From the IMG/VR virus record IMGVR_UViG_3300045988_068230, positions 1 to 48,682 of that record: a stretch of 48,682 nt of DNA. One strand, written 5' to 3'. The notes beneath the pieces were generated by a model. That model was given only the letters and a program-made list of their open reading frames with translations, made no database searches and was not told the DNA's origin. This DNA comes from a virus. Below, one piece after another: positions 1,986-32,221 of the stretch. How positions within the stretch are numbered: position 1 is the first letter of the stretch; every line of letters begins with the position of its first letter. Both the position numbers and the translations under genes were made by a program.

Positions 1986-3437
1986 ATGGGACTTATAACA
2001 ACACTAAAAAGGTGGATAGGGATGTTATTTAAAACTCAAGCAGAGCAGGACTTTCGCACAGAGGTAATAGAGTCTCCCGTGATGGAAGCAATGGTGCAGA
2101 AATGTGCGAATATTTACAGGGGTACGCCGTACTGGGTGGATGAGGATAACGGGATCAAGACAATTAATTTTGCAAAGTCTGTATGCTCAGAGACTGCAAG
2201 ACTAGCAACATTAGCTATCGGTATCCAGATTGACGGATCTGCAAGGGCAACATGGCTACAGGGGCAGATTGACAAGGTATATTTTCAAATCCGCCACTGG
2301 GTGGAGTATGGATGCGCCTATGGAACGGTATTTATCAAACCAAATGGAGATGGATTTGATGTATTTACTCCGCTGGATGTTCTTTTGACGGACTGCGATA
2401 ATCAGGAAATTAGGGGAATTATATTTAAAGATCAGTACGCAGAGGGAGATAAGTTTTATACAAGGCTTGAGTATCACCGGTTCGTAGATAGTATGGTTGA
2501 TGGAGCAAAGGTTTCCCCGTATTACATCAGTAATCGCACTTATGTATCATCCAGCTCTGATAGTATCGGAAATCCGATCGAGATGAGTAAAACAAAATGG
2601 GCTGGATTACTGAGGGATACACCGCCAATTTTAAAAGGGAATAATGAGAGCCTTGACGGCCCTATGTTTGGAGTATTCCGAACACCACAGGCAAACAATA
2701 TTGATCTTAATACAGTCCTAGGGTTGCCAATCTTTGCGGAAGCGATTGAGGAATTGAAAGATCTGGATATAGCATACAGCAGAAATGCCGGAGAGATTTT
2801 CGATTCTGAAAAGATCATTTTAGCGGATGATAGACTGCTGATGCCAGATGGGATGCCCGTGAACATGAAAACACCTGATGGACTGGAGCGAAAGCGAAAA
2901 CAAATGAAGTTACCGCACTATGTAAAAAATGTGTTTGGCAACGATCAAAAAGAATTCTACCAGGAAATCAATCCGGTACTCAACACAGATACCCGTATAA
3001 GCGGCATAAATGCCCTTTTAAGCCAGTTAGGATACAAGATTGGATTCTCCAATGGATATTTTGTTTTTAACGAATCTAGCGGCATTCAGACAGCCACAGG
3101 GGTAGAAGCGGAACAGCAGAGGACAATACAGTTTATCAAGGACGCGAGAGACAAACTGGAATCCTGCCTTGACGGGGCTATCTATGCGATGAATGTGTAT
3201 GCTGATCTGTACGGACTTGCACCGGTTGGGGCTTATAAAGTCAATTATGATTTTGGAGATATCACTTATAATTACCAGGAGGATAAACAAATCTGGCTAG
3301 GCTATGTAAATACCGGCAGGGTGCCGTTTTGGTATTACCTTGTTAAATTTGAGGGATTTAGTGAGGAGGATGCCAAGGCTCTATCGGAAGAAGCGAATAA
3401 GGCAAATAAGGATAGCGGATTGTTTGGAGAGGAGTAA
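1986..3437 (+). CDS. Portal protein (SPP1 gp6-like)
   Basis: 483 aa immediately after the terminase genes. Size, position and overall composition fit a siphovirus portal. Confidence 0.85.
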   Translation: MGLITTLKRWIGMLFKTQAEQDFRTEVIESPVMEAMVQKCANIYRGTPYWVDEDNGIKTINFAKSVCSETARLATLAIGIQIDGSARATWLQGQIDKVYFQIRHWVEYGCAYGTVFIKPNGDGFDVFTPLDVLLTDCDNQEIRGIIFKDQYAEGDKFYTRLEYHRFVDSMVDGAKVSPYYISNRTYVSSSSDSIGNPIEMSKTKWAGLLRDTPPILKGNNESLDGPMFGVFRTPQANNIDLNTVLGLPIFAEAIEELKDLDIAYSRNAGEIFDSEKIILADDRLLMPDGMPVNMKTPDGLERKRKQMKLPHYVKNVFGNDQKEFYQEINPVLNTDTRISGINALLSQLGYKIGFSNGYFVFNESSGIQTATGVEAEQQRTIQFIKDARDKLESCLDGAIYAMNVYADLYGLAPVGAYKVNYDFGDITYNYQEDKQIWLGYVNTGRVPFWYYLVKFEGFSEEDAKALSEEANKANKDSGLFGEE

Positions 3438-3440
3438 GCT

Positions 3441-4778
3441 ATGAGCTATATACCGGAACCAGTTACGAGAACTGATAAATACCTTGCTTATATTGCTGGA
3501 AACATGGACGTTGTTCTTCCAGATCATCCGATAACCAGAAAAGAGCATTATCTTGCGGCGTGGGCTGAGAAAAGTGGATTTGAGGATGTGGATGTTACAG
3601 GCGAACCGCCACTGACACTTGAGAATGCTATCGGCAAGCCGTTGAAGGGGCTGAGGATATATGGGAAGAGTAAGCAAAAAACGACTACAGGGGCGCAGCT
3701 ATTTCCACCCCCAATGCTAGGAAGCCAAGAAAAAAATGGCATAACTATTGATTGCATGGAGGATGGAAAAATACGTATCAGCGGAACGGCTGAAATATTA
3801 ACGGATTTTTACGTATCGAGGCTACAGTTGTCTGCTGGGACCTATACTTCTTCTGCGGGAGTTAATATTGATGAAAGTACGTTAAGATATGCGCTTGTTG
3901 ATGATATTGGAGTGCTATATTACGATGTGGACGTTGACTATACAACAGATACGATAGCTGAAACTATTGATGTATCATTGTTGTTGAGAGTGTACGCTGG
4001 AAAAACAATAGATCTTACCGTCCAGCCAATGCTCAACGCTGGTTCCACCCCTCTCCCATGGGAGCCGTACACCGGCGGCGTACCGAGTCCGTCCCCGGAG
4101 TATCCACAGGAGATTGAGAGTGCAGGTGATGATGGAAATCTCAGTGTCATTGTAAAAAATCCTAATAATGAGCAGATGCAATCTGTGCCTTTCTCAACAC
4201 CCAATGGTCTTCCCGGTATTCCAATCACCTCCGGCGGCAACTACACAGATGCATCCGGCCGACAATGGATTTGTGATGAGGTTGATTTTGGCCGTGGGAT
4301 GTATGTGCAGAACATTAAAGTGAGCAAGAGTCTAAACGACCTGTCGTGGCATACCTGGGGAGTTAATAAGGGTGCTAATGGCATAACTGGCTTTTATACA
4401 TATGATATTGATATACCCAAAATAGACAAGGCCGTTTCCAATATTGCCCGCTATAATGAAGATATACATGGCGGGAAAAGGGAAGGCATCTGTGCATCGA
4501 TAATACAGCCAACGTCTATGACACCATATATGATACTATGTGTCCGCAACGATACAATATCGGATATTTCAAGCGATAATGCGGCGATACAATCATTTAA
4601 GGAGATGCTGGCCAAAACAGATGCTTATATGATGTATGTTCTCGCCACGCCCATCGAAACGACCCTCACCTCTGACCAACTCGCCGCCTATAAGCAACTC
4701 CATACCTACAAAGGCACCACCATTATAGATAATGATGCCGGGGCATATATGAGCGTAAGATACGAAAAAATGAAATAA
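3441..4778 (+). CDS. Fibre/receptor-binding-like structural protein encoded inside the head module
   Basis: 445 aa with SD GGAGAGGAG. The motifs PLKGLRIYGKSKQ and PSPSPEYPQEIESAG resemble Firmicutes phage fibre proteins. Its N-terminal 21 aa are shared with ORF 4792. Confidence 0.6.
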   Translation: MSYIPEPVTRTDKYLAYIAGNMDVVLPDHPITRKEHYLAAWAEKSGFEDVDVTGEPPLTLENAIGKPLKGLRIYGKSKQKTTTGAQLFPPPMLGSQEKNGITIDCMEDGKIRISGTAEILTDFYVSRLQLSAGTYTSSAGVNIDESTLRYALVDDIGVLYYDVDVDYTTDTIAETIDVSLLLRVYAGKTIDLTVQPMLNAGSTPLPWEPYTGGVPSPSPEYPQEIESAGDDGNLSVIVKNPNNEQMQSVPFSTPNGLPGIPITSGGNYTDASGRQWICDEVDFGRGMYVQNIKVSKSLNDLSWHTWGVNKGANGITGFYTYDIDIPKIDKAVSNIARYNEDIHGGKREGICASIIQPTSMTPYMILCVRNDTISDISSDNAAIQSFKEMLAKTDAYMMYVLATPIETTLTSDQLAAYKQLHTYKGTTIIDNDAGAYMSVRYEKMK

Positions 4779-4791
4779 AGGAGATGATAAT

Positions 4792-5022
4792 ATGGCATAC
4801 TTACCGGATCCTGTAACGAGGGAAGAACAATACTTATATGCTATTGCTAAAAATGATGAAGAAATCCAGAAACAGGCACTTTTAACCCAGTATGTAGCCG
4901 CTATGGCTGATGTATATATTCCAGAGGAGGATGCAGATGTACAAAATATTACTACAGCTCCAGAAGTTTTATCCACCGGAAACGTGGAGGAAAATGGTGG
5001 AACATGCGAAGAAAGCAGGTAA
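4792..5022 (+). CDS. Small acidic protein sharing its N-terminal peptide with 3441..4778
   Basis: SD AAAGGAG. MAYLPDPVTREEQYLYAIAKN versus MSYIPEPVTRTDKYLAYIAGN gives 12/21 identical. Confidence 0.6.
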   Translation: MAYLPDPVTREEQYLYAIAKNDEEIQKQALLTQYVAAMADVYIPEEDADVQNITTAPEVLSTGNVEENGGTCEESR

Positions 5023-5067
5023 GCTGACTGATGCAGAGTATAAACTCCTGATTGAGTAGGTGGCCGA

Positions 5068-5517
5068 ATGGAGATTAACAATCATGTCGGAAATGTGCAT
5101 ATCAAATTCGATACGAAGCGGATTGACAGCAATTTAGAAGAAGCGCAGAAGAAGCTGAATGAGCAAATCGTAGAAGACTGCATCCCACTTATGCCATTCC
5201 AACAGGGAGCATTGGTGGAAAGTGTATCATTCCCACAGGGTATTGATGGCGGAGAAATCAAGTGGGGGAATAGAAACGTGCCTTATGCTCATTATCTGTA
5301 CATGGGTGAGGTGTACGGCCCAAATATCCCAAAGAAAGATGCACAGGGAAATATCATTGGATGGATGTCTCCGCCAAGTAAAAGACCAACCGGAAGAAGA
5401 TTGCAATATAGCAAAGCACCGCATCCAGAAGCAGGGGCAGAATGGTTCGAAAGAGCAAAAGCACAGCATTTACCGGATTGGACAAGGCTGGTAAAAAGAA
5501 CGGTAGGTGATAGATAA
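5068..5517 (+). CDS. Putative minor capsid / head-associated protein
   Basis: 149 aa with SD AGGTGG. Lies in the head-morphogenesis block; the VPYAHYLYMGEVYG motif resembles minor capsid families. Confidence 0.6.
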   Translation: MEINNHVGNVHIKFDTKRIDSNLEEAQKKLNEQIVEDCIPLMPFQQGALVESVSFPQGIDGGEIKWGNRNVPYAHYLYMGEVYGPNIPKKDAQGNIIGWMSPPSKRPTGRRLQYSKAPHPEAGAEWFERAKAQHLPDWTRLVKRTVGDR

Positions 5518-6767
5518 TGCTTCCACCAGAGTATTTTTACGGCAAAGAGCAACGGATCCTTGCGATTTATCAGGAATTGGAAGATTTTATAATGACGGAC
5601 ATCTCCAGACGAATCCTCCAGACAGGCGGCATGACTGCTACAGCTGATCGGCTCATCTGGAAACTCACACAGATGGGAGAAAGCAGAGCGGAGATTGAAC
5701 AGAAGTTGCAGAAGCTTACAAAAATGACACAGTCAGAGCTTAGACGGATCCTGCAAAATGCCGTGATGACTTCTTGGAACAATGATAAAGAAATCCTTTT
5801 AGGGATTGATGAGAATATAAGTTCACCATTGGAAAATCCAGAAGTAATCGCCGTGATGGATGCAGAATTTAAAAAGACATTGGGAGAGCTTAATAACTTG
5901 AGCAGAACCACTATAAATCAATCTCAGCGTGATCTAATTAATCTGCTGGATAGAGCCGAGATCCATGTTGTTTCCGGTGCGCAATCCTACACCTCTGCAA
6001 TTTGTGATGTGCTGGATCAGTATGCAGGAAAGGGAATTATGGTGGATTATCCAACAAGTAACACAAAAAGAACCCTTGAAGCAGCTGTGAGGTGTTGTGT
6101 GGTAACCTCCATGAATCAAACAGCGGCGCAGGTAACAAATCAGTACATTGTGCAAGCAAAGACAAATTATGTCCTTGTATCAGCCCATCTGGGAGCCAGA
6201 ACAGCACAGAAAGGACAACCACCTTGCGGAGATCATTCGTCCTGGCAGGGAAAGCCTTACTCAATAGTTGGATCGGAACCAGGATATCCAAACCTTTTGG
6301 AGAGTACTGGATATGATATAAGCCCAAAGACCGGACAGGGAACCGTGGTGGATCCACACGGACTACACGGGTGGAATTGTCGCCACAGTCACCAGCCATG
6401 GGCGAAAGGCTTACGAAATCCCTGGGCGGACGAACATAAGATTGATTCCGAGGAGAATAGAAAGATCTACGAAGATACCCAGAAACAGCGAGCTATGGAA
6501 CGTTCTATTAGAGCAACCAAACGTAAGCTGATAATGAAGAACGAAGAAATAAACTCAGACGATATACCGGATTCCGAAAAAGAAAAACTAATATCAGAAT
6601 ATGATCGGATGGCTTTCCGGCTGACTGAGCAGAATAAAGCATATAATAAATTCTGCCAGGACAACAATCTTGCGGCTCAATATGATCGCAACAAGGTTGC
6701 AGATTTCGGGTACAAGCAGCAGTCTAAAGCAAATGCCGGAGCAAAACGATACATGAAAGGACATTGA
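5517..6767 (+). CDS. Head morphogenesis / minor capsid protein (Phage_min_cap2 N-terminus, SPP1 gp7/Mu F-like core)
   Basis: The N-terminus LAIYQELEDFIMTDISRRI is typical of minor capsid protein 2. The GWNCRHS motif resembles gp7/Mu F. Confidence 0.8.
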   Translation: MLPPEYFYGKEQRILAIYQELEDFIMTDISRRILQTGGMTATADRLIWKLTQMGESRAEIEQKLQKLTKMTQSELRRILQNAVMTSWNNDKEILLGIDENISSPLENPEVIAVMDAEFKKTLGELNNLSRTTINQSQRDLINLLDRAEIHVVSGAQSYTSAICDVLDQYAGKGIMVDYPTSNTKRTLEAAVRCCVVTSMNQTAAQVTNQYIVQAKTNYVLVSAHLGARTAQKGQPPCGDHSSWQGKPYSIVGSEPGYPNLLESTGYDISPKTGQGTVVDPHGLHGWNCRHSHQPWAKGLRNPWADEHKIDSEENRKIYEDTQKQRAMERSIRATKRKLIMKNEEINSDDIPDSEKEKLISEYDRMAFRLTEQNKAYNKFCQDNNLAAQYDRNKVADFGYKQQSKANAGAKRYMKGH

Positions 6768-7099: not shown

Positions 7100-7300
7100 A
7101 TGAAATTATATGTATTCACAAAGAAAGATATAGACAGATTCTTGGCAGAGTGTAATTTCACGCCGGATGAGGAAAGACTATTCCGGCTGAGGTGCAAAGA
7201 ATATACACTTGAATACTGCGCTGAACAGATGAATGTGAGTATATCCACGGCGAAACGATTAAGCCGGAGAGTAAACAATAAAATAATTAAAGTGTGCTGA
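7100..7300 (+). CDS. Sigma-70 region-4-like small HTH regulator
   Basis: SD AAGAGG is 7 nt before ATG 7100. TPDEERLFRLRCKEYTLEYCAEQMNVSISTAKRLSRRV resembles sigma region 4 / positive-control factors. Confidence 0.65.
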   Translation: MKLYVFTKKDIDRFLAECNFTPDEERLFRLRCKEYTLEYCAEQMNVSISTAKRLSRRVNNKIIKVC

Positions 7301-7307
7301 TACGATA

Positions 7308-7347
7308 AAAGTCCCGGGATTAACTTTCCAGGGGCTTTACTTTTTTA
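7308..7347 (+). terminator. Rho-independent terminator of the packaging/head-morphogenesis operon
   Basis: aaagtcccgg / ccaggggcttt stem followed by acttttttatt. Confidence 0.7.
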
Positions 7348-7376
7348 TTGATAAATATAGCAATCCGTGATATTAT
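7348..7376 (+). promoter_or_regulatory. Sigma-A-type promoter for RNA unit A
   Basis: TTGATA (7348-7353), 17-nt spacer, extended -10 TGaTATTAT (7368-7376). The predicted start at about 7383/7384 is the first base of unit A. Confidence 0.7.
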
Positions 7377-7383
7377 AATCCTA

Positions 7384-7449
7384 GTCGCTACAGATGGACG
7401 CTTCTGTTAGTGGCCTCTGGCAGCTATCCGCCAGGGCAAGGATTGAAAT
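7384..7449 (+). ncRNA. Structured RNA unit A (66 nt) with type I-C CRISPR-repeat-like termini
   Basis: Layout: GTCGCT, hairpin 1 (7388-7394/7403-7410, 1-nt bulge), TGG, hairpin 2 (7415-7421/7430-7436, loop AGCTATCC), CAAGGATTGAAAT. It has no ORF. Its paralog is unit B, with compensatory pair changes. Confidence 0.7.
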
Positions 7450-7491
7450 ATTAGAGTTCTTTTTAAAAAAAAGCTTTTAATAGCTTTTTTA

Positions 7492-7556
7492 GTCGCTCCG
7501 GGTGGTTGCTCCCGAGAGTGGTTCCAGTAGCAATCCACTGGGACAGGGATTAAAAC
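7492..7556 (+). ncRNA. Structured RNA unit B (65 nt), tandem paralog of unit A
   Basis: GTCGCTCC..., the same two hairpins (loops TGGTTGCT and AGCAATCC), ending CAGGGATTAAAAC. The ~40 nt downstream also resemble the sequence after unit A (attag..ttct..ttttaa..aaaaaag). Confidence 0.65.
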
Positions 7557-7576
7557 ATTAGTTCTATTTTTAACTC

Positions 7577-7618
7577 CAAAAAAAAGAAAGCCACATTTAT
7601 TTTTTGAGTGTGACTTTC
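7577..7618 (-). terminator. Terminator of the minus-strand cassette (probably bidirectional)
   Basis: 10-bp stem 7586-7595/7609-7618. The single mismatch becomes a G-U pair on the minus strand, where a run of 8 U follows. On the plus strand tttttatttt follows. Confidence 0.7.
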
Positions 7619-7629
7619 TTTTTATTTTA

Positions 7630-7917
7630 TTATGCGATTTTTCCGTCCCCATAGCATTTATAAACCGCTTCTACCAGCTCCGCCAGTTCTTCCGGCGTAA
7701 GCTTTTCCTTTAAGCTGTCCGGGATGCGGCTATAATTTGCTCGGAATGCATCAGAGCATCTACCGATGTTACAAACCTTCTTGACTTGTTCGAGTTTGTA
7801 CATTGTTCCAAGTTCTTCCATGCTGATTTCTCCAGCATTAACGGCTTCCCGTCCTTCTTTTGTTAAAATAGACATTGCCTCTTTCTTATTAATAACTCCG
7901 ATTCCATTAATTTTCAT
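7630..7917 (-). CDS. Hypothetical small protein (95 aa), third gene of the minus-strand cassette
   Basis: ORF 7630..7953; SD AAGGAAGG lies 8 nt before ATG 7917. No family recognised. Confidence 0.6.
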   Translation of the reverse strand: MKINGIGVINKKEAMSILTKEGREAVNAGEISMEELGTMYKLEQVKKVCNIGRCSDAFRANYSRIPDSLKEKLTPEELAELVEAVYKCYGDGKIA

Positions 7918-7939
7918 GTTCTTTTCCTTCCTTTCACAA

Positions 7940-8194
7940 TTAGTCAGCGTCAATTATTCTTACGGTTGTTTTTAATATTTGAGATTTGTTCTTTATTATT
8001 TCAAAAAATAATACATATTCTTCTCCATCCTCGTCCTGCACCGAGATTTTTCCGCTTCTCAAAATTTCAGAAATATTTCCTTTCCCATTCCAAAGTTTTT
8101 CAATTGGATAGGTATCTCCGATATGTATATCATGCCCCAGTTGGATGCAATATGCATATTCCGAAAGAATTCCACTTGTATATTCATCATACAT
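7940..8194 (-). CDS. Hypothetical small acidic protein (84 aa), second gene of the cassette
   Basis: ORF 7940..8218; SD GAGGGG lies 7 nt before ATG 8194. D/E-rich, no family recognised. Confidence 0.6.
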   Translation of the reverse strand: MYDEYTSGILSEYAYCIQLGHDIHIGDTYPIEKLWNGKGNISEILRSGKISVQDEDGEEYVLFFEIIKNKSQILKTTVRIIDAD

Positions 8195-8207
8195 TCTTTT
8201 TCCCCTC

Positions 8208-8393
8208 TTATCTTTCATTCTCTTCCAGCTGATCGAGTGCTGTTAGTACGGTATCCCTAATAAAAGCAGTATTGCTTTTCCCGAGACTTAATTTTTCTAT
8301 TCTTTCTTTCGTTCCCCTTGGGAATACGATATTTAGGCGATAGTTATTGTTTTCGTATTTTCTAATCGCTCTTTTCTGAGCTTCTGTTGCCAT
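8208..8393 (-). CDS. Ribbon-helix-helix (Arc/CopG-like) DNA-binding protein, first gene of the cassette
   Basis: SD AGAGGA lies 7 nt before ATG 8393. MATEAQKRAIRKYENNNYRLNIVFPRGTKERIEKL... has the beta-strand plus two-helix RHH pattern. Confidence 0.7.
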   Translation of the reverse strand: MATEAQKRAIRKYENNNYRLNIVFPRGTKERIEKLSLGKSNTAFIRDTVLTALDQLEENER

Positions 8394-8442
8394 AATCATT
8401 TCCTCTTGATTTTCTATTATTTTTGATGTATTATACATATAT

Positions 8443-8454
8443 CAGCAATTGCTG
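8443..8454. promoter_or_regulatory. Perfect 12-bp palindrome CAGCAATTGCTG (candidate RHH operator)
   Basis: Lies 8-19 nt upstream of the minus-strand TATAAT (8435-8430) of the RHH operon. It also overlaps the -35-like TTGCTG of the plus-strand unit C. Confidence 0.5.
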
Positions 8455-8479
8455 ATACTCAGTATTTATTTATACTGAG

Positions 8480-8511
8480 GTTCGCTCTATTCGTGGGGCG
8501 CGGATTGAAAT
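8480..8511 (+). ncRNA. Solitary 32-nt type I-C CRISPR-repeat-like unit (unit C); not an array
   Basis: GTTCGCTCTATTCGTGGGGCGCGGATTGAAAT. Stem 8483-8488/8495-8500 (6 bp, 2 G-U), 6-nt loop, and exactly 11 nt of tail CGGATTGAAAT. An intrinsic terminator lies 20 nt downstream. Confidence 0.6.
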
Positions 8512-8530
8512 ATATAATTATTTTTCAAGG

Positions 8531-8558
8531 AAAAGCAGCTGTTATAGCTGCTTTTTTC
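8531..8558. terminator. Bidirectional intrinsic terminator
   Basis: aaaagcagct / agctgctttt stem. A T-run follows on the plus strand (after unit C) and an A-run/T-run on the minus strand (after CDS 8560..8760). Confidence 0.75.
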
Positions 8559-8559
8559 G

Positions 8560-8760
8560 TTATACTTCCATAGCGTTTTCCACAGCTTTCTTACCAGCGA
8601 GTTTGATTGCCGCCGTCTTGCTCATAATCTCTCTTTCACGGAAATCACGTTCTTCTGTGTTTAGCCATTTTTCAGCCTGTTCTTTTGTTTCAAACGGGCC
8701 GTACACTCTGTGAGACCATTCTCCGAAACTGTATTTACTACTTATTCCATATCTGATCAT
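8560..8760 (-). CDS. Hypothetical 66-aa protein expressed from a consensus promoter
   Basis: ORF 8560..8832, but SD AAGGAGG precedes ATG 8760 (MIRYGISSKYSFGEW...). The longer ORF would run over its own promoter. Confidence 0.65.
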   Translation of the reverse strand: MIRYGISSKYSFGEWSHRVYGPFETKEQAEKWLNTEERDFREREIMSKTAAIKLAGKKAVENAMEV

Positions 8761-8803
8761 TTTTTTCTTCCTCCTTATGTGCTGTTCTTCTTTAACTGTC
8801 TTT

Positions 8804-8850
8804 ATTATACATCTATGTGCGTAATATGTCAAGATGTATGTGCGTAATAT
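8804..8850 (-). promoter_or_regulatory. Consensus sigma-A promoter plus two 14-bp direct repeats
   Basis: Minus strand: TTGACA (8832-8827), 17 nt, TGtTATAAT (-10 at 8809-8804). TATGTGCGTAATAT occurs at 8814-8827 and 8837-8850, flanking the -35. Confidence 0.7.
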
Positions 8851-8866
8851 TTGAAAAAAAACTTTT

Positions 8867-8896
8867 TTGATACTTTGATGAACTGTTTCCTATTAT
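8867..8896 (+). promoter_or_regulatory. Sigma-A-type promoter of the 8.9-12.9 kb accessory island
   Basis: TTGATA (8867-8872), 18 nt, TATTAT (8891-8896). Divergent from the promoter at 8804-8832. Confidence 0.5.
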
Positions 8897-8943
8897 TTTC
8901 CTATGGCAAAATATAGGTACAAAGAAACATAGGAGGTATGCTT

Positions 8944-12986: not shown

Positions 12987-13275
12987 TCCTGCAAGGAGTA
13001 GCGACCTTGCAAGGACTTTCTGACTGAGAGTTTTTGCTTTCTTTTTTCATCATTTCCTCCTTTCTCTGGATGTGCCCTTAAGCAGAAACAGGCTTTGAGC
13101 GGCCTGGAGGTTGAAAAGCGGATGCAATTTCCGGCACATCCCTTTACCAGTAATGGCAGGCTGGTAACACCTCCTTGTGAGACGGGTAATAAAAACAGGT
13201 GGAACCTTCCGTGAAAGTCGGATAGTGGCAGGCATAACACGATAAACACCTTGCTAACCCGGGAATCCGGGTTAT
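12987..13275 (+). ncRNA. Structured non-coding leader of the late structural operon
   Basis: No credible plus-strand ORF. Contains a 5'-proximal 10-bp hairpin (12987-13015), a 9-bp long-range helix (13068-13076/13133-13141), and hairpins at 13089-13106, 13144-13167 and 13256-13273. Confidence 0.5.
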
Positions 13276-13365
13276 GGGAAAGCGGCAACGATTGGCGGTG
13301 TTGCGGCGGACTGTAAATCCGTTCCCTTGTGGTAAACAATATAGGTTCAATTCCTATCTTTCCCA
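13276..13365 (+). tRNA. tRNA-Tyr (anticodon GTA), class II with long variable arm
   Basis: Acceptor GGGAAAG/CTTTCCC, anticodon arm GCGGA-CTGTAAA-TCCGT, variable stem TTGT/ACAA, T arm ATAGG-TTCAATT-CCTAT, discriminator A. C at position 8 is atypical. Confidence 0.75.
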
Positions 13366-13434
13366 CGATTCAACATGTTGAAAAGGTTATGTCTTATCCT
13401 GTTATCTGCTGGGCGGATCAAAAAGACAATACGA

Positions 13435-13506
13435 TGGAATATGGCTCAGTGGTAGAGCAGTAGCCTTATAGGCTATGTGTCGCAAGTTCGATTCTTGCTA
13501 TTCCGA
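13435..13506 (+). tRNA. tRNA-Ile (anticodon TAT)
   Basis: Canonical cloverleaf: D arm GCTC-AGTGGTA-GAGC, anticodon arm GTAGC-CTTATAG-GCTAT, T arm GCAAG-TTCGATT-CTTGC. The 1-72 pair is U-G and no CCA is encoded. Confidence 0.8.
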
Positions 13507-29746: not shown

Positions 29747-29971
29747 ATTGATTTATTTTGTGTTTTTCCGAATCCTTGCAAACCATTGATTTTACTTGAT
29801 TTTTTATAAAATATCAGTATTATTTCCTATTAATAAGACATACAATTAAAGTATTAACTTTGAGATAGCGCAAAGCCTTGTAAAATCGTGGAAACACTTG
29901 ATTTTACTTGGTTTGCGGCACTTTTATATTAAGTTTTATTTTGTTTTATTTGTGACTTTTTACGGTTCAAT
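29747..29971. other. Candidate attP region
   Basis: AT-rich non-coding stretch next to int, bracketed by the TAGTCACAA pairs. It contains CCTTG.AAA...TTGATTTTACTTG twice (about 29773-29798 and 29875-29910). Confidence 0.45.
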
Positions 29972-31149
29972 TAGTCACAAGTAGTCACAAATGGAACTTT
30001 TATCTTTTCGATTTCAGTCCGCAATTCTTCCAATGTTCTGTGCCCGTATACGGCGTTAGTAACGTCTCCAGCAAATGAATGTCCTAACATCCTTTTTCGG
30101 TCGTTCTCCCGGACACCGTACCGCTCACACAGCATTGAAAATGTGTGTCTGCAATCGTGAGGGGTATGTTTTGGGTTTCCGACTATATTAAGCCTTTCCA
30201 GTGTAGGGTAGAAGAATTTGTCCCGGTGGTACTTCTGGGTGTACATCAGCAGCTTGCCTTGTGATTCCATTTTTGATCGAACAAAATCATACACGACCGG
30301 ATGGATGGGGACAATCCTGTCTTTTCCTGCTTTTGTCTTGGATCCGCCCTGGTAAGACTTTTGCTTAAGATTGACTACCAAATTGGCAACCTCTCCGATT
30401 CTCCATCCAGAGTAACACATGATAAGGATCAGCTGCACTTCTGGATCTTCTGTATTATCCCACAGGATCTGAAGCTCTCGATCAGAAAATGGAGTTCCAT
30501 GCTCGGTATCATCCGGTGTGTTGATCCGAACGTGCAGAGCTTTATTTTCCGTTACAATCTCTGCATAGATCGCATATTTGTACATCTGTTTAAAAAGCGT
30601 CAGAATGCCCGTTAAACTCTCTTTTTTAAGCGGACAATCATCAATAACCTTTTGCAGGTCAGGAGCCTTTAAATCCTCAAATACGCAGTTATAGAGAGAT
30701 TTACTGTTAACGTATGCAGAGTGGTAGGATTGCCTCGAACTTTTTGAAAGGGTGCTTCCATCTGGAAATTTCCATTCCATAAACTGCTCATATACCTCTG
30801 AGAACGTCAATTTCTTGATTTCCGGGTGTTTATCCTCTACGCCCTTAATTGTATTGTAGTCTGCAATTATGCGGCTTAAAATGGTATCTGCGTCCATTGT
30901 GGGGGCAATCTCTAATTCTCGCTCCATTCCAGGTTGATACGTTCCGGCTTTGTAAGCTGTGAGGACTGCAAAGCCCTTTACATAGTCGTCCACGTAGCAG
31001 ATTGCAGGTGGACGGACAGTTTTGCCAAGCTCATCGACTGTTGCTGGTGGATGTACGGCATAGCAGTTCCTCCTGCCGGATCCTAAATATCTGATTGTGC
31101 CGAAACCTGCTGGTAGATTGGGGTATTTCTTTCTTTTCTTCTTCGCCAT
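29971..31149 (-). CDS. int: Tyrosine integrase
   Basis: SD AAGGAA before ATG 31149 (the longer ORF to 31305 has no support). Catalytic signatures WRIGE, HDCRHTF, LGH and Y in AVYGHRT. Confidence 0.9.
   Translation of the reverse strand: MAKKKRKKYPNLPAGFGTIRYLGSGRRNCYAVHPPATVDELGKTVRPPAICYVDDYVKGFAVLTAYKAGTYQPGMERELEIAPTMDADTILSRIIADYNTIKGVEDKHPEIKKLTFSEVYEQFMEWKFPDGSTLSKSSRQSYHSAYVNSKSLYNCVFEDLKAPDLQKVIDDCPLKKESLTGILTLFKQMYKYAIYAEIVTENKALHVRINTPDDTEHGTPFSDRELQILWDNTEDPEVQLILIMCYSGWRIGEVANLVVNLKQKSYQGGSKTKAGKDRIVPIHPVVYDFVRSKMESQGKLLMYTQKYHRDKFFYPTLERLNIVGNPKHTPHDCRHTFSMLCERYGVRENDRKRMLGHSFAGDVTNAVYGHRTLEELRTEIEKIKVPFVTTCD
29972..29990 (+). repeat. Tandem (G)TAGTCACAA x2 overlapping the 3' end of int
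   Basis: TAGTCACAA at 29972-29980 and GTAGTCACAA at 29981-29990, in the same orientation as the pair at 29726-29746. Confidence 0.6.
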
Positions 31150-31321
31150 TTCTATTCCTTCTTCCTTGAGTGATAAAGTGTAGGTATAAAAATAACAGTC
31201 GAACAAATTTTCTGACTTGCCGACCGTCCCCGAAGATGATACAATATTCTTCGTCAAAAGATAATATCTCTTCAGAGGTATTCGTCGTCCCGGTGTTGGT
31301 AGCACTGGGGCGGTTTTTTAT

Positions 31322-32221
31322 TCACATATTTGCATTTTGAATTAATTTTTCTAATGCATCTCTGTCCCACAGAAAGACCTGCGTTTTTTCCGCTAATTCC
31401 TTAGCTGATTGAGTGAAATACCTGTTAGTCAATACAACGCCAACATGACATCCGTAATATGATTTACCTGCAAAAACTTCCTGTACAGCTTTGTTTCCAA
31501 CATCAGAAGAATAACGTTTGCATTGAACCGCATACTTAACTCCAAGTTTTTCCGCCAAAACATCAATTCCCTGATCGTTGCTTTCTTGTGTTACGTACAC
31601 ATTGGAAAAACCATTCGCCGCAAGAAGTTCGGCGCAAAATTTTTCAAAATCGTGTCCTTCCATGTAATCATATTTTCCATTGTATAATTGCACTCTATCA
31701 GATTTCGGAAGCGTCGATGATTCTTTATTTGATTGTGGTTCTATAATATTTGTTGTATTCAAAAATCGTTGAAAACTATCCATTGACATTAGAGACTTTC
31801 TCTTCTTCTCTCTATTTTCAGCACCAACGACACCAGTAATGTAAAGCTGCTCCATAATTCGATCTGCTCTATTAAATCCTATCTTGAAGAGGACTTGTAA
31901 TTTTCCAACAGTAATCTCTCCTTTCTGTATGGCAAAAATAGCTGCCTCAACAAAATGTGGATCAACTTCATAAGTTTTTCTTTCTGGATTTGGTTGAAAA
32001 GTATTATTTTTATATGTTTCCTCTATTTCTTTTGCTAATTGGATTGAGCGTTTTTTCTTTCTTTGCTTGTAAAATATGTATATCACAATTATTGCGATAA
32101 TAATCCCTAAAGTTATACATATTTTTTCATAATTTTCCTTTATCCAGTCCTCTATTGCACATAACACGGCAAACAATAGGAGTAGTGCGCCACATCCACC
32201 AGAATCTTTTTGCTTAGCCAT
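31322..32221 (-). CDS. Membrane-anchored protein with FtsK-gamma-like winged helix and C-terminal Mrr-cat restriction-endonuclease domain
   Basis: Two N-terminal TM segments. GEITVGKLQVLFKIGFNRADRIMEQLYITGVVG resembles the FtsK gamma domain. GHDFEKFCAELL...GIDVLAEK...YAVQCKRY is the Mrr-cat D...QxK core. Confidence 0.7.
   Translation of the reverse strand: MAKQKDSGGCGALLLLFAVLCAIEDWIKENYEKICITLGIIIAIIVIYIFYKQRKKKRSIQLAKEIEETYKNNTFQPNPERKTYEVDPHFVEAAIFAIQKGEITVGKLQVLFKIGFNRADRIMEQLYITGVVGAENREKKRKSLMSMDSFQRFLNTTNIIEPQSNKESSTLPKSDRVQLYNGKYDYMEGHDFEKFCAELLAANGFSNVYVTQESNDQGIDVLAEKLGVKYAVQCKRYSSDVGNKAVQEVFAGKSYYGCHVGVVLTNRYFTQSAKELAEKTQVFLWDRDALEKLIQNANM

Follow-up and report, generated by a model that had tools for sequence, protein, structure and literature searches.

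A type I-C repeat-like unit in a gut phage genome

We analysed a stretch of viral DNA of 48,682 nucleotides (nt; IMG/VR record IMGVR_UViG_3300045988_068230, positions 1 to 48,682), hereafter called the window. It comes from a human-gut metagenome, appears to be the whole genome (48.7 kb) of a temperate phage of the siphovirus type and is identical to the ENA contig ERZ894308 NODE_211_length_48682. Between the open reading frames (ORFs) 8208-8438(-) and 8560-8832(-) lies a 32-nt element on the plus strand (8480-8511, GTTCGCTCTATTCGTGGGGCGCGGATTGAAAT), which we call unit C (psi-R). An initial annotation had described this element as a solitary unit that folds like a canonical type I-C CRISPR repeat and has its own promoter and terminator. 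Unit C is a significant but degenerate look-alike of I-C repeats, and it appears from sequence comparison to be the core of a small-RNA module of about 118 nt (roughly 8441-8558, plus strand) rather than a stand-alone transcript that starts at its stem.

The 32-mer, its 6-bp stem and its 11-nt 3' part are all present as the initial annotation had given them. In the stem, 8483-8488 pairs with 8495-8500 (C-G, G-C, C-G, U-G, C-G, U-G), and RNAfold extends it by A8489-U8494 to a 7-bp hairpin with a UUCG loop (8483-8489/8494-8500). The 11 nt that follow (8501-8511, plus strand, CGGATTGAAAT) have the length and position of an I-C 5' handle. Unit C is thus divided into 21 nt and 11 nt, matching I-C repeats, and the Cas5c cut site is predicted between 8500 and 8501. 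No second repeat was found at spacer distance, and no other match to our I-C repeat model (R1, see below) exceeded 13 bits in the window. Therefore unit C is not part of a CRISPR array, in which repeats alternate with spacers of 33-36 nt. It is intergenic and has no neighbouring full or partial repeats, and in these respects it resembles a solitary repeat unit (SRU). The initial annotation had also reported an absence of cas genes, and none was found among about 20 window ORFs in a scan that was not exhaustive.

Two of the simpler measures, taken alone, are weak evidence. The folding energy of the 32-mer by itself is unremarkable (z = -0.64). The 10-mer GGATTGAAAT occurs exactly twice in the window, as had been noted, at 7440 (the end of sister unit A, see below) and at 8502, both on the plus strand; shuffled sequences contained it 0.41 times on average and 5 of 100 shuffles reached two copies, so that this count is marginal by itself.

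Similarity to genuine type I-C repeats

A collection of I-C repeats was obtained by scanning genome contigs for GTCGCTC-N13-17-GGATTGAAAT. This yielded 120 stretches, about 80 of them multi-repeat arrays; upstream of two arrays that were checked we found cas8c, cas7c, cas4, cas1c and cas2, all over the curated NCBIfam cut-offs. The covariance model R1 was built from 25 genuine repeats out of these arrays. It matched unit C at 8481-8511 over its full length (model positions 1-32) with 26.3 bits and an E-value of about 2e-4. This was the sole significant match in the 97 kb searched, and the runner-up, unit A, scored 12.8 bits from its handle alone. The claim of a solitary I-C-like unit without an array is borne out by these results. 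Other units provide a scale for this score: about 40 bits for genuine repeats, 41.4 bits for a clean solitary unit of another phage (contig L164), and 26.1 bits for a degenerate repeat at the end of a real array. Unit C is therefore degenerate, and "canonical" was an overstatement. Over about 1.1 Mb of related phage DNA nothing scored above 18 bits with R1, leaving aside loci L149-L167, which had been fetched with a 16-mer from unit C itself.

Pairwise comparisons agree with the model. In the best global alignment with a real repeat, 27 of 33 positions are identical (score 19, against a maximum of 12 in 500 shuffles). A BLAST search, proposed by the initial annotation as a check, found 17 nt in exact agreement (GGGGCGCGGATTGAAAT) and 34.2 bits as the best result among the 138 I-C repeats gathered; this is below the 41.1-bit cut-off of SRUFinder, whose database holds 17,823 repeats. 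Unit C shares with genuine I-C repeats (for example GTCGCTCCCCACGCGGGAGCGTGGATTGAAAT) the length of 32 nt, the TCGC start, a stem of 6-7 bp and an 11-nt 3' part ending in GGATTGAAAT. It differs from them by a T inserted after the initial GT (GTTCGC instead of GTCGC), by a stem weakened by two G-U pairs, by its loop, and by a C instead of T at the first handle position, although C is also found there in some real repeats. Moreover, it is unrepeated and has no spacers. When IMG/VR was scanned for exact 16-mers and 21-mers of unit C, no copy of the unit came up; the hits were unrelated genes, a real I-C array (L163) and the solitary units of L158 and L164.

The small-RNA module around unit C

A diverged homologue of the whole module was found in contigs L324, L384 and L402 by a metagenome scan for handle plus tail, which also showed the variant module in L374. 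The window and the homologue share the same order of parts: promoter, leader hairpins L1 and L2, repeat-like hairpin, GGATTGAAAT, tail and terminator. The probable promoter in the window is TTGATT-17-TATTAT (8406-8434, plus strand), which scored 9/12 in a consensus scan and aligns with TTGACT-17-TATAAT (11/12 consensus matches) in L324. The RNA probably starts near A8441.

The initial annotation had instead placed the promoter at TTGCTG (8449-8454) and TATACT (8471-8476), 16 nt apart, with transcription starting at the base of the stem. Both hexamers are there, but they lie inside the leader hairpins L1 and L2, which are conserved in L324 without the hexamers, and the L324 promoter aligns with 8406-8434. 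This pair was therefore rejected as a promoter, and a start near 8441 is preferred to one at the stem.

Leader hairpin L1 (ATCAGCAATTGCTGAT, 8441-8456, plus strand) has a 7-bp fold and holds TTGCTG together with a 12-bp palindrome, for which a role as an operator shared with the divergent operon of a ribbon-helix-helix (RHH)-like protein had been suggested. L324 carries ATCAGCAAggaaTTGTTGAT at the same place: it keeps the palindrome with a 4-nt insertion in its centre, which is the loop of the hairpin, and no RHH operon is adjacent. In addition, homologues of the RHH-like protein in other phages adjoin ATGTGCGT(T/A)AT iterons, not the palindrome. The operator was thus discarded, and the palindrome is more likely to be an RNA hairpin of the leader. 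Leader hairpin L2 (CTCAGTAT/ATACTGAG, 8458-8479, plus strand) has an 8-bp fold and holds TATACT. At this position L324 has a different 8-bp hairpin (TCTTGAGA/TCTCAAGA), so the change is fully compensatory.

The repeat-like hairpin is formed by CGCTCT/GGGGCG in the window and by CGCTCTG/CAGGGTG in L324, whose unit scores 17.9 bits with R1; the variant of L324 and L402 preserves the pairing. GGATTGAAAT is invariant among the C-type variants. It is followed by an AT-rich, spacer-like tail (ATATAATTATTTTTCAA, psi-S, 8512-8528, plus strand) with TATAAT at 8513-8518. The first 14 nt of the tail are identical in the window, L324 and L402, despite differing hairpins and terminators, and over the three diverged module variants the best-conserved stretch is the handle plus these 14 nt. 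The module ends in an intrinsic terminator (8529-8563, plus strand) that was supported by a terminator scan and by folding and consists of a 13-bp stem (8529-8557) and a T run; two versions of it occur in the modules compared. A strong terminator had been correctly predicted here, but unit C probably shares it with a convergent 66-amino-acid (aa) gene ending at 8560. The RNA from 8438 to 8560 as a whole folds with z = -6.4.

These observations bear on two explanations that do not involve a functional RNA. The R1 score of unit C equals that of the degenerate terminal repeat, and C-to-T drift from repeats of the type GTCGCCCC...GGGGCGCGGATTGAAAT, leaving G-U pairs in the stem, could give the sequence of unit C, as if it were a decaying and now functionless remnant of a captured CRISPR array or mini-array. 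This is very unlikely, because unit C is part of a promoter-to-terminator module whose hairpins were kept by compensatory change in the diverged copy, because there is no trace of a second repeat or spacer near it, and because its sequence is identical in five independent contigs from different samples. Recombination with, or integration into, host I-C arrays is another idea, which earlier authors have considered for solitary repeats in viruses (PMC10651486), and the phage is, judged from its tyrosine integrase gene (29971-31305), temperate. However, unit C is 21 kb from the integrase gene, it agrees with real repeats over no more than 17 contiguous bases, and the promoter, the leader hairpins and the terminator indicate that the product is an RNA. 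A recombination site is thus extremely improbable, and the candidate role as phage attachment site (attP) was rejected on the distance to the integrase and the RNA-gene architecture.

Exchange of units and the sister units A and B

An exact look-up of the neighbouring 61-aa protein, the RHH-like one, found ten contigs. Upstream of the identical 61-aa gene, one slot holds one of three things: unit C, a unit resembling type I-B repeats, or the gene of a 77-aa protein. Unit C occupies it in five contigs. The I-B-like unit, which has an AT-rich hairpin and ends in GGGAATTGAAAT, takes this place in L299 and L302 and also in L133, which was found separately, and in L297, L300 and L303 the 77-aa gene is there without an RNA unit. 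The hairpin of the I-B-like unit reads CCTA(A/T)TAATTTAGG and is followed by TGGGAATTGAAAT; the L133 copy is at about 2440-2470(-), and in L299 the tail and terminator of the unit are homologous to those of unit C. Ends of the form GGAATTGAAAT are labelled I-B in the part of the SRUFinder table examined.

Two sister units lie 1 kb upstream of unit C on the same strand. Unit A (7348-7490, plus strand) consists of a promoter with a TG-extended -10 (7348-7376), a two-hairpin RNA ending in GGATTGAAAT (7384-7449), an AT-rich tail and a terminator. Unit B (7492-7626, plus strand) consists of a two-hairpin RNA ending in GGATTAAAAC (7492-7556), an AT-rich tail and a terminator (7578-7626). Each of them thus has a strong promoter or an immediately preceding terminator, as well as a terminator of its own. 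In L324, units A, B and the C homologue (C2) directly follow one another. Units A and B are members of a family of two-hairpin RNAs that are 64-67 nt long. We collected 17 distinct copies, with compensatory changes in 11 of 17 predicted pairs. The family is present in at least 14 IMG/VR gut-phage contigs of 31-83 kb, and members lie in L001, L029, L133, L324 and L426-L446. No Rfam family covers these RNAs. An IS110-family transposase gene adjoins the A/B region at 4347-5567 of an otherwise near-identical contig, L294.

The I-C-like parts of this family are confined to a GTCGC start and a GG(A/G)TT(G/A)AAA(C/T) end, and R1 gives units A and B 10-13 bits. Their 3' ends (GGATTGAAAT, GGGTTGAAAT and GGATTAAAAC) are all annotated as ends of natural I-C repeats in the same part of the SRUFinder table.

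The module might also be a regulatory small RNA of the phage that acts on phage or host mRNAs or on another protein and has nothing to do with CRISPR, its repeat-like look being a coincidence or an old relic. Many small RNAs have a conserved multi-hairpin leader and a terminator, unit C matches I-C repeats in a degenerate form, GGATTGAAAT is only marginally enriched, the resemblance of units A and B to I-C repeats is confined to their ends, and unit C has been linked to no cas gene, host or target. Nevertheless, we regard this explanation as unlikely. The I-C match is full-length and, the loci fetched with unit C aside, unique in more than 1 Mb of related DNA, and the geometry of unit C is exactly 21 + 11 nt. 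Furthermore, the alternative occupant of the slot ends like an I-B repeat and the variant 3' ends of the A/B family all coincide with natural I-C repeat ends, according to the part of the SRUFinder table examined, and relatives of the island proteins are associated with AcrIC5 and with a Cas5-like gene (see below).

Comparison with published phage and host RNAs

Solitary repeat units of viruses were first listed by Faure et al. (2019), and RNA anti-CRISPRs (Racrs) were surveyed by Camara-Wilpert et al. (2023; PMC10651486). In that survey, viral units were found close behind promoters and in clusters with acr genes, the nine that were tested inhibit CRISPR-Cas, and one of the Racrs, RacrIC1, inhibits a type I-C system. 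Like these, unit C is phage-encoded, intergenic, solitary and I-C-like with a hairpin and an 11-nt handle; it belongs to an island of small accessory genes and follows a promoter, without an array and without a cas gene among the window ORFs scanned. Unit C is far more degenerate than the published units, with its best BLAST score (34.2 bits) against the cut-off of 41.1, and it is not in the part of the SRUFinder table that we examined. Whereas RacrIC1 follows acrIC5 after 11 nt and is co-transcribed with it, unit C is preceded by a promoter of its own and a two-hairpin leader and is followed by a terminator. The activity of RacrIF1 resides in its hairpin and the leader upstream of it, and its handle can be dispensed with (PMC10651486), while the most conserved parts of unit C are the handle and the tail.

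A second group of relatives are viral RNAs resembling CRISPR RNAs (crRNAs), called Cracrs, which are built of a repeat-like part, a short spacer-like part and a terminator, as in a V-A example (Liu et al., bioRxiv 10.1101/2024.10.29.618823). Unit C has the same build, with one repeat-like part (8480-8511), a spacer-like tail (8512-8528) and a rho-independent terminator (8529-8557), and here too several units lie side by side in one phage and small anti-defence-like proteins are co-encoded. However, the I-C Cracrs have been reported as arrays of repeat-like units (bioRxiv 10.1101/2024.10.29.618823), whereas units A, B and C are separately terminated genes. Cracrs are also defined by at least nine matches, next to the protospacer-adjacent motif (PAM), to a host promoter or a host CreA/CreR target, and neither a target nor a host counterpart was found for unit C in the loci searched.

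Bacterial I-C loci encode crRNA-like regulators of CRISPR-supervised defence genes (Nezha/Gabija), which are 48-50 nt long with an 11-nt handle and a 3' hairpin, and for which a TTC-flanked promoter target with 16 bp of pairing has been demonstrated (bioRxiv 10.1101/2024.12.27.630466). Unit C resembles them in its single repeat-like unit, the predicted Cas5c cut just 3' of the hairpin, the 11-nt handle, a 3' end within a downstream hairpin and a size of about 48-50 nt. It differs in its place: the host regulators are chromosomal and lie between cas genes, and unit C is on a phage. Its anatomy thus fits both solitary repeat units and single-repeat crRNA-like RNAs.

Candidate crRNA-like regulators of bacterial hosts that, judged from their sequence, are built like unit C occur in four of the bacterial genome contigs (L186, L190, L205 and L192). 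They are I-C units of one or two repeats, either with short spacers of 16-27 nt or with a tail followed by a terminator. L186 has a 16-nt spacer, ATTGTTGTCAAGGTTG, for which a match (TGTTGTCAAGG) lies about 50 nt upstream.

Possible function of unit C

Given these precedents, it is reasonable to suppose that a solitary I-C-like repeat can act on Cas proteins, and the idea in the initial annotation of a decoy, or of a pseudo-crRNA that is loaded, matches what has been published for solitary repeat units and Racrs including RacrIC1 (PMC10651486) and for viral crRNA-like RNAs (bioRxiv 10.1101/2024.10.29.618823). We tentatively favour the reading that the RNA of unit C may be an RNA anti-CRISPR of the Racr kind, which would imitate an I-C repeat and capture the Cas5c/Cascade subunits of the host. 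In its favour are the full-length R1 match, the 21 + 11 nt division within a module that has a probable promoter and a terminator, hairpins that persist through compensatory changes, the exchangeable slot, the I-C-type ends of units A and B, and the association of relatives of the 95-aa protein with AcrIC5 or a Cas5b-like gene (see below). As such, it is a further example of a trick described in other phages, not a new principle.

The RNA would be made in excess, either during infection or from the prophage. The I-C endoribonuclease Cas5c of the host would bind the hairpin and handle and cut between 8500 and 8501. The 3' product of about 58 nt (11-nt handle, 17-nt AT-rich tail and terminator hairpin) could then nucleate a short, useless Cascade-like particle, and the 60-nt 5' product (structured leader and hairpin) may hold a Cas protein, too. 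In this way Cas5c, Cas8c and Cas7 would be titrated from the real crRNAs of the host, with less interference against the phage.

Several points weigh against such a decoy. Unit C is degenerate and its BLAST score is below the published cut-off, and Rfam gave no match to its CRISPR-DR families, either at the gathering thresholds or at E-values up to 10, and none to another relevant family in 7300-8600. The handle and tail are best conserved, though the handle of RacrIF1 is dispensable, and this pattern fits a guide at least as well as a decoy. A structured leader may be unsuited to a Cas7 filament. Since unit C is identical in all five carrying contigs, there is no variation within the unit to reveal selection. 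The adjacent small proteins match no known anti-CRISPR (Acr) or anti-CRISPR-associated (Aca) protein.

Finally, no matching host I-C system or repeat has been linked to the phage. Its closest cultured relative is Blautia phage Montmirail (49% identity of the large terminase), and its host range is probably within Lachnospiraceae; exact protein look-ups for a host found metagenome contigs only. I-C arrays are common in the sampled Lachnospiraceae genomes and none has a spacer against the phage: among 1353 spacers from 120 I-C arrays, only chance matches of 16-17 nt were found.

The conserved tail suggests a different role, in which unit C is a regulatory crRNA-like RNA, that is, a viral Cracr. 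The Cas5c-processed RNA, composed of handle, tail and 3' hairpin, would be loaded into the I-C Cascade of the host, and the tail, with ATATAATTATTTTTCA as the seed for PAM-flanked matching, would pair for about 10-16 nt with a TTC-flanked site in a host promoter and repress that promoter without DNA cleavage; it could belong to the cas operon or to a toxin or defence gene under CRISPR supervision. The strongest pointer to this guide is that the handle and the first 14 nt of the tail are the most conserved stretch in three variants. The anatomy equals that of the host I-C Nezha regulator and of the viral V-A Cracr, and arrays of I-C Cracrs have been reported. The predicted 3' product of the unit C RNA is 43-58 nt long, compared with 48-50 nt in the Nezha regulator; the tail contains a perfect TATAAT, as for a -10 box target; and the three RNAs in a row in L324 are like the multiplexed units that have been reported.

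The searches for a target, however, were negative. No credible TTC-flanked match to the tails of units A, B and C was found in 0.8 Mb around I-C arrays, in the window or in the phage loci, and a single 9-nt match lies on the other strand inside a CRISPR array. This is the strongest counterpoint to the guide, but a weak test, because the sample probably lacks the host and the true host loci are outside it. In the metagenome scan for handle plus tail, no host RNA was among the matches listed, which were phage copies and at least about 110 chance matches in AT-rich DNA. Moreover, indels distinguish the tail of A from that of B and would shift any guide register, and the conservation of an AT-rich tail may reflect recent common descent only. 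We therefore consider a guide doubtful, although it is the main rival of the Racr reading.

A more elaborate and rather unlikely version would take the island as a battery of three separately transcribed RNAs (A, B and C) that present an I-C 5' handle and a short tail on unrelated scaffolds, and that hijack Cascade through the handle, unlike the hairpin-centred RacrIF1. Unit C would be an I-C Cracr that uses the terminator hairpin as its 3' handle and silences the promoter of the host cas genes or of a CRISPR-supervised defence gene at the -10 box, and the exchange of I-C-like and I-B-like heads would retarget the RNA.

To return to the Racr reading, unit C is an unusually degenerate solitary repeat unit set in a multi-RNA island. 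If functional, it would be a gut-phage example of RNA-based anti-CRISPR against type I-C. It would also mean that the BLAST cut-off of the published survey can miss units as degenerate as this one, and RNA anti-CRISPRs may therefore be under-counted. The module offers a compact natural system for studying recognition by Cas5c/Cascade, with a conserved handle and tail, exchangeable I-C-like and I-B-like heads, exchangeable terminators and sister two-hairpin RNAs. As nothing more than a decoy of the known kind, it would add a useful annotation but no conceptual advance.

Neighbouring genes and related islands

Unit C sits in a variable accessory island (about 7300-8900), which is flanked by a 68-aa gene resembling sigma region 4 and by a conserved 149-aa gene. 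The whole island is missing from the sister phage MT835739. Divergent from unit C is a three-gene operon of small proteins (7630-8393, minus strand, from gene calls), encoding the 61-aa RHH-like protein (8208-8393), an 84-aa acidic protein (7940-8194) and a 95-aa helical protein (7630-7917). None of the three had a match in Pfam or among PDB sequences or an informative one in PHROGs, and the RHH fold is thus assigned by eye only. The AlphaFold model of the 95-aa protein is confident and all-helical (pLDDT 93), and no PDB fold matched it (best E = 1.9). The operon proteins are candidates for anti-defence proteins, by context only.

Homologues of the 95-aa protein with 82% identity are encoded two genes from a solitary 230-aa Cas5b-like gene on phage contigs of 53-147 kb. 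This gene (L447-L454, about 4616-5308, plus strand, larger gut-phage contigs), near which no other cas genes were called, matches TIGR01895 over its full length with E = 1e-19, under the curated cut-off, and Pfam Cas_Cas5d with 25.9 bits (cut-off 23); it could be a viral Cas5 decoy. Another 230-aa gene, in L169, was considered as a Cas5 and rejected. More distant relatives of the 95-aa protein (63% identity) occur in long islands whose small genes include homologues of AcrIC5 (PF22147, 40.8 bits, cut-off 27). In L455, L458 and L460, an 85-aa gene of the AcrIC5 family is about 2 kb from the 95-aa homologue, and these islands also carry DarA_C and DUF4121 genes. R1 found no repeat-like unit in the islands with AcrIC5 or the Cas5b-like gene.

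At 8804-8855 the window contains a perfect sigma-70 consensus promoter on the minus strand (TTGACA-17-TATAAT, 8832-8804), overlapped by two 22-nt direct repeats with ATGTGCGTAAT. Many related phages have the same iterons, in 2-5 copies, on the flanks of their homologues of the RHH-like gene. The iterons and the promoter are likely to be an operator system.

Other features of the phage genome

The window has a G+C content of about 41%, and the gene calls include a large terminase, minor capsid protein 2, the tyrosine integrase, a primase/helicase module and a CHAP lysin. Adjoining the integrase gene, 31322-32221 (minus strand) encodes a protein of 299 aa that combines an FtsK-gamma winged helix with an Mrr-type restriction endonuclease domain and could be a prophage-encoded defence or exclusion gene. 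A RAGATH-21 RNA (Rfam RF03097) lies at 13067-13142 and scored 75.4 bits, above the gathering threshold. It is followed by a tRNA-Tyr(GTA) call at 13276-13366, unusually long at 91 nt, and then by tRNA-Ile(TAT) at 13435-13506.

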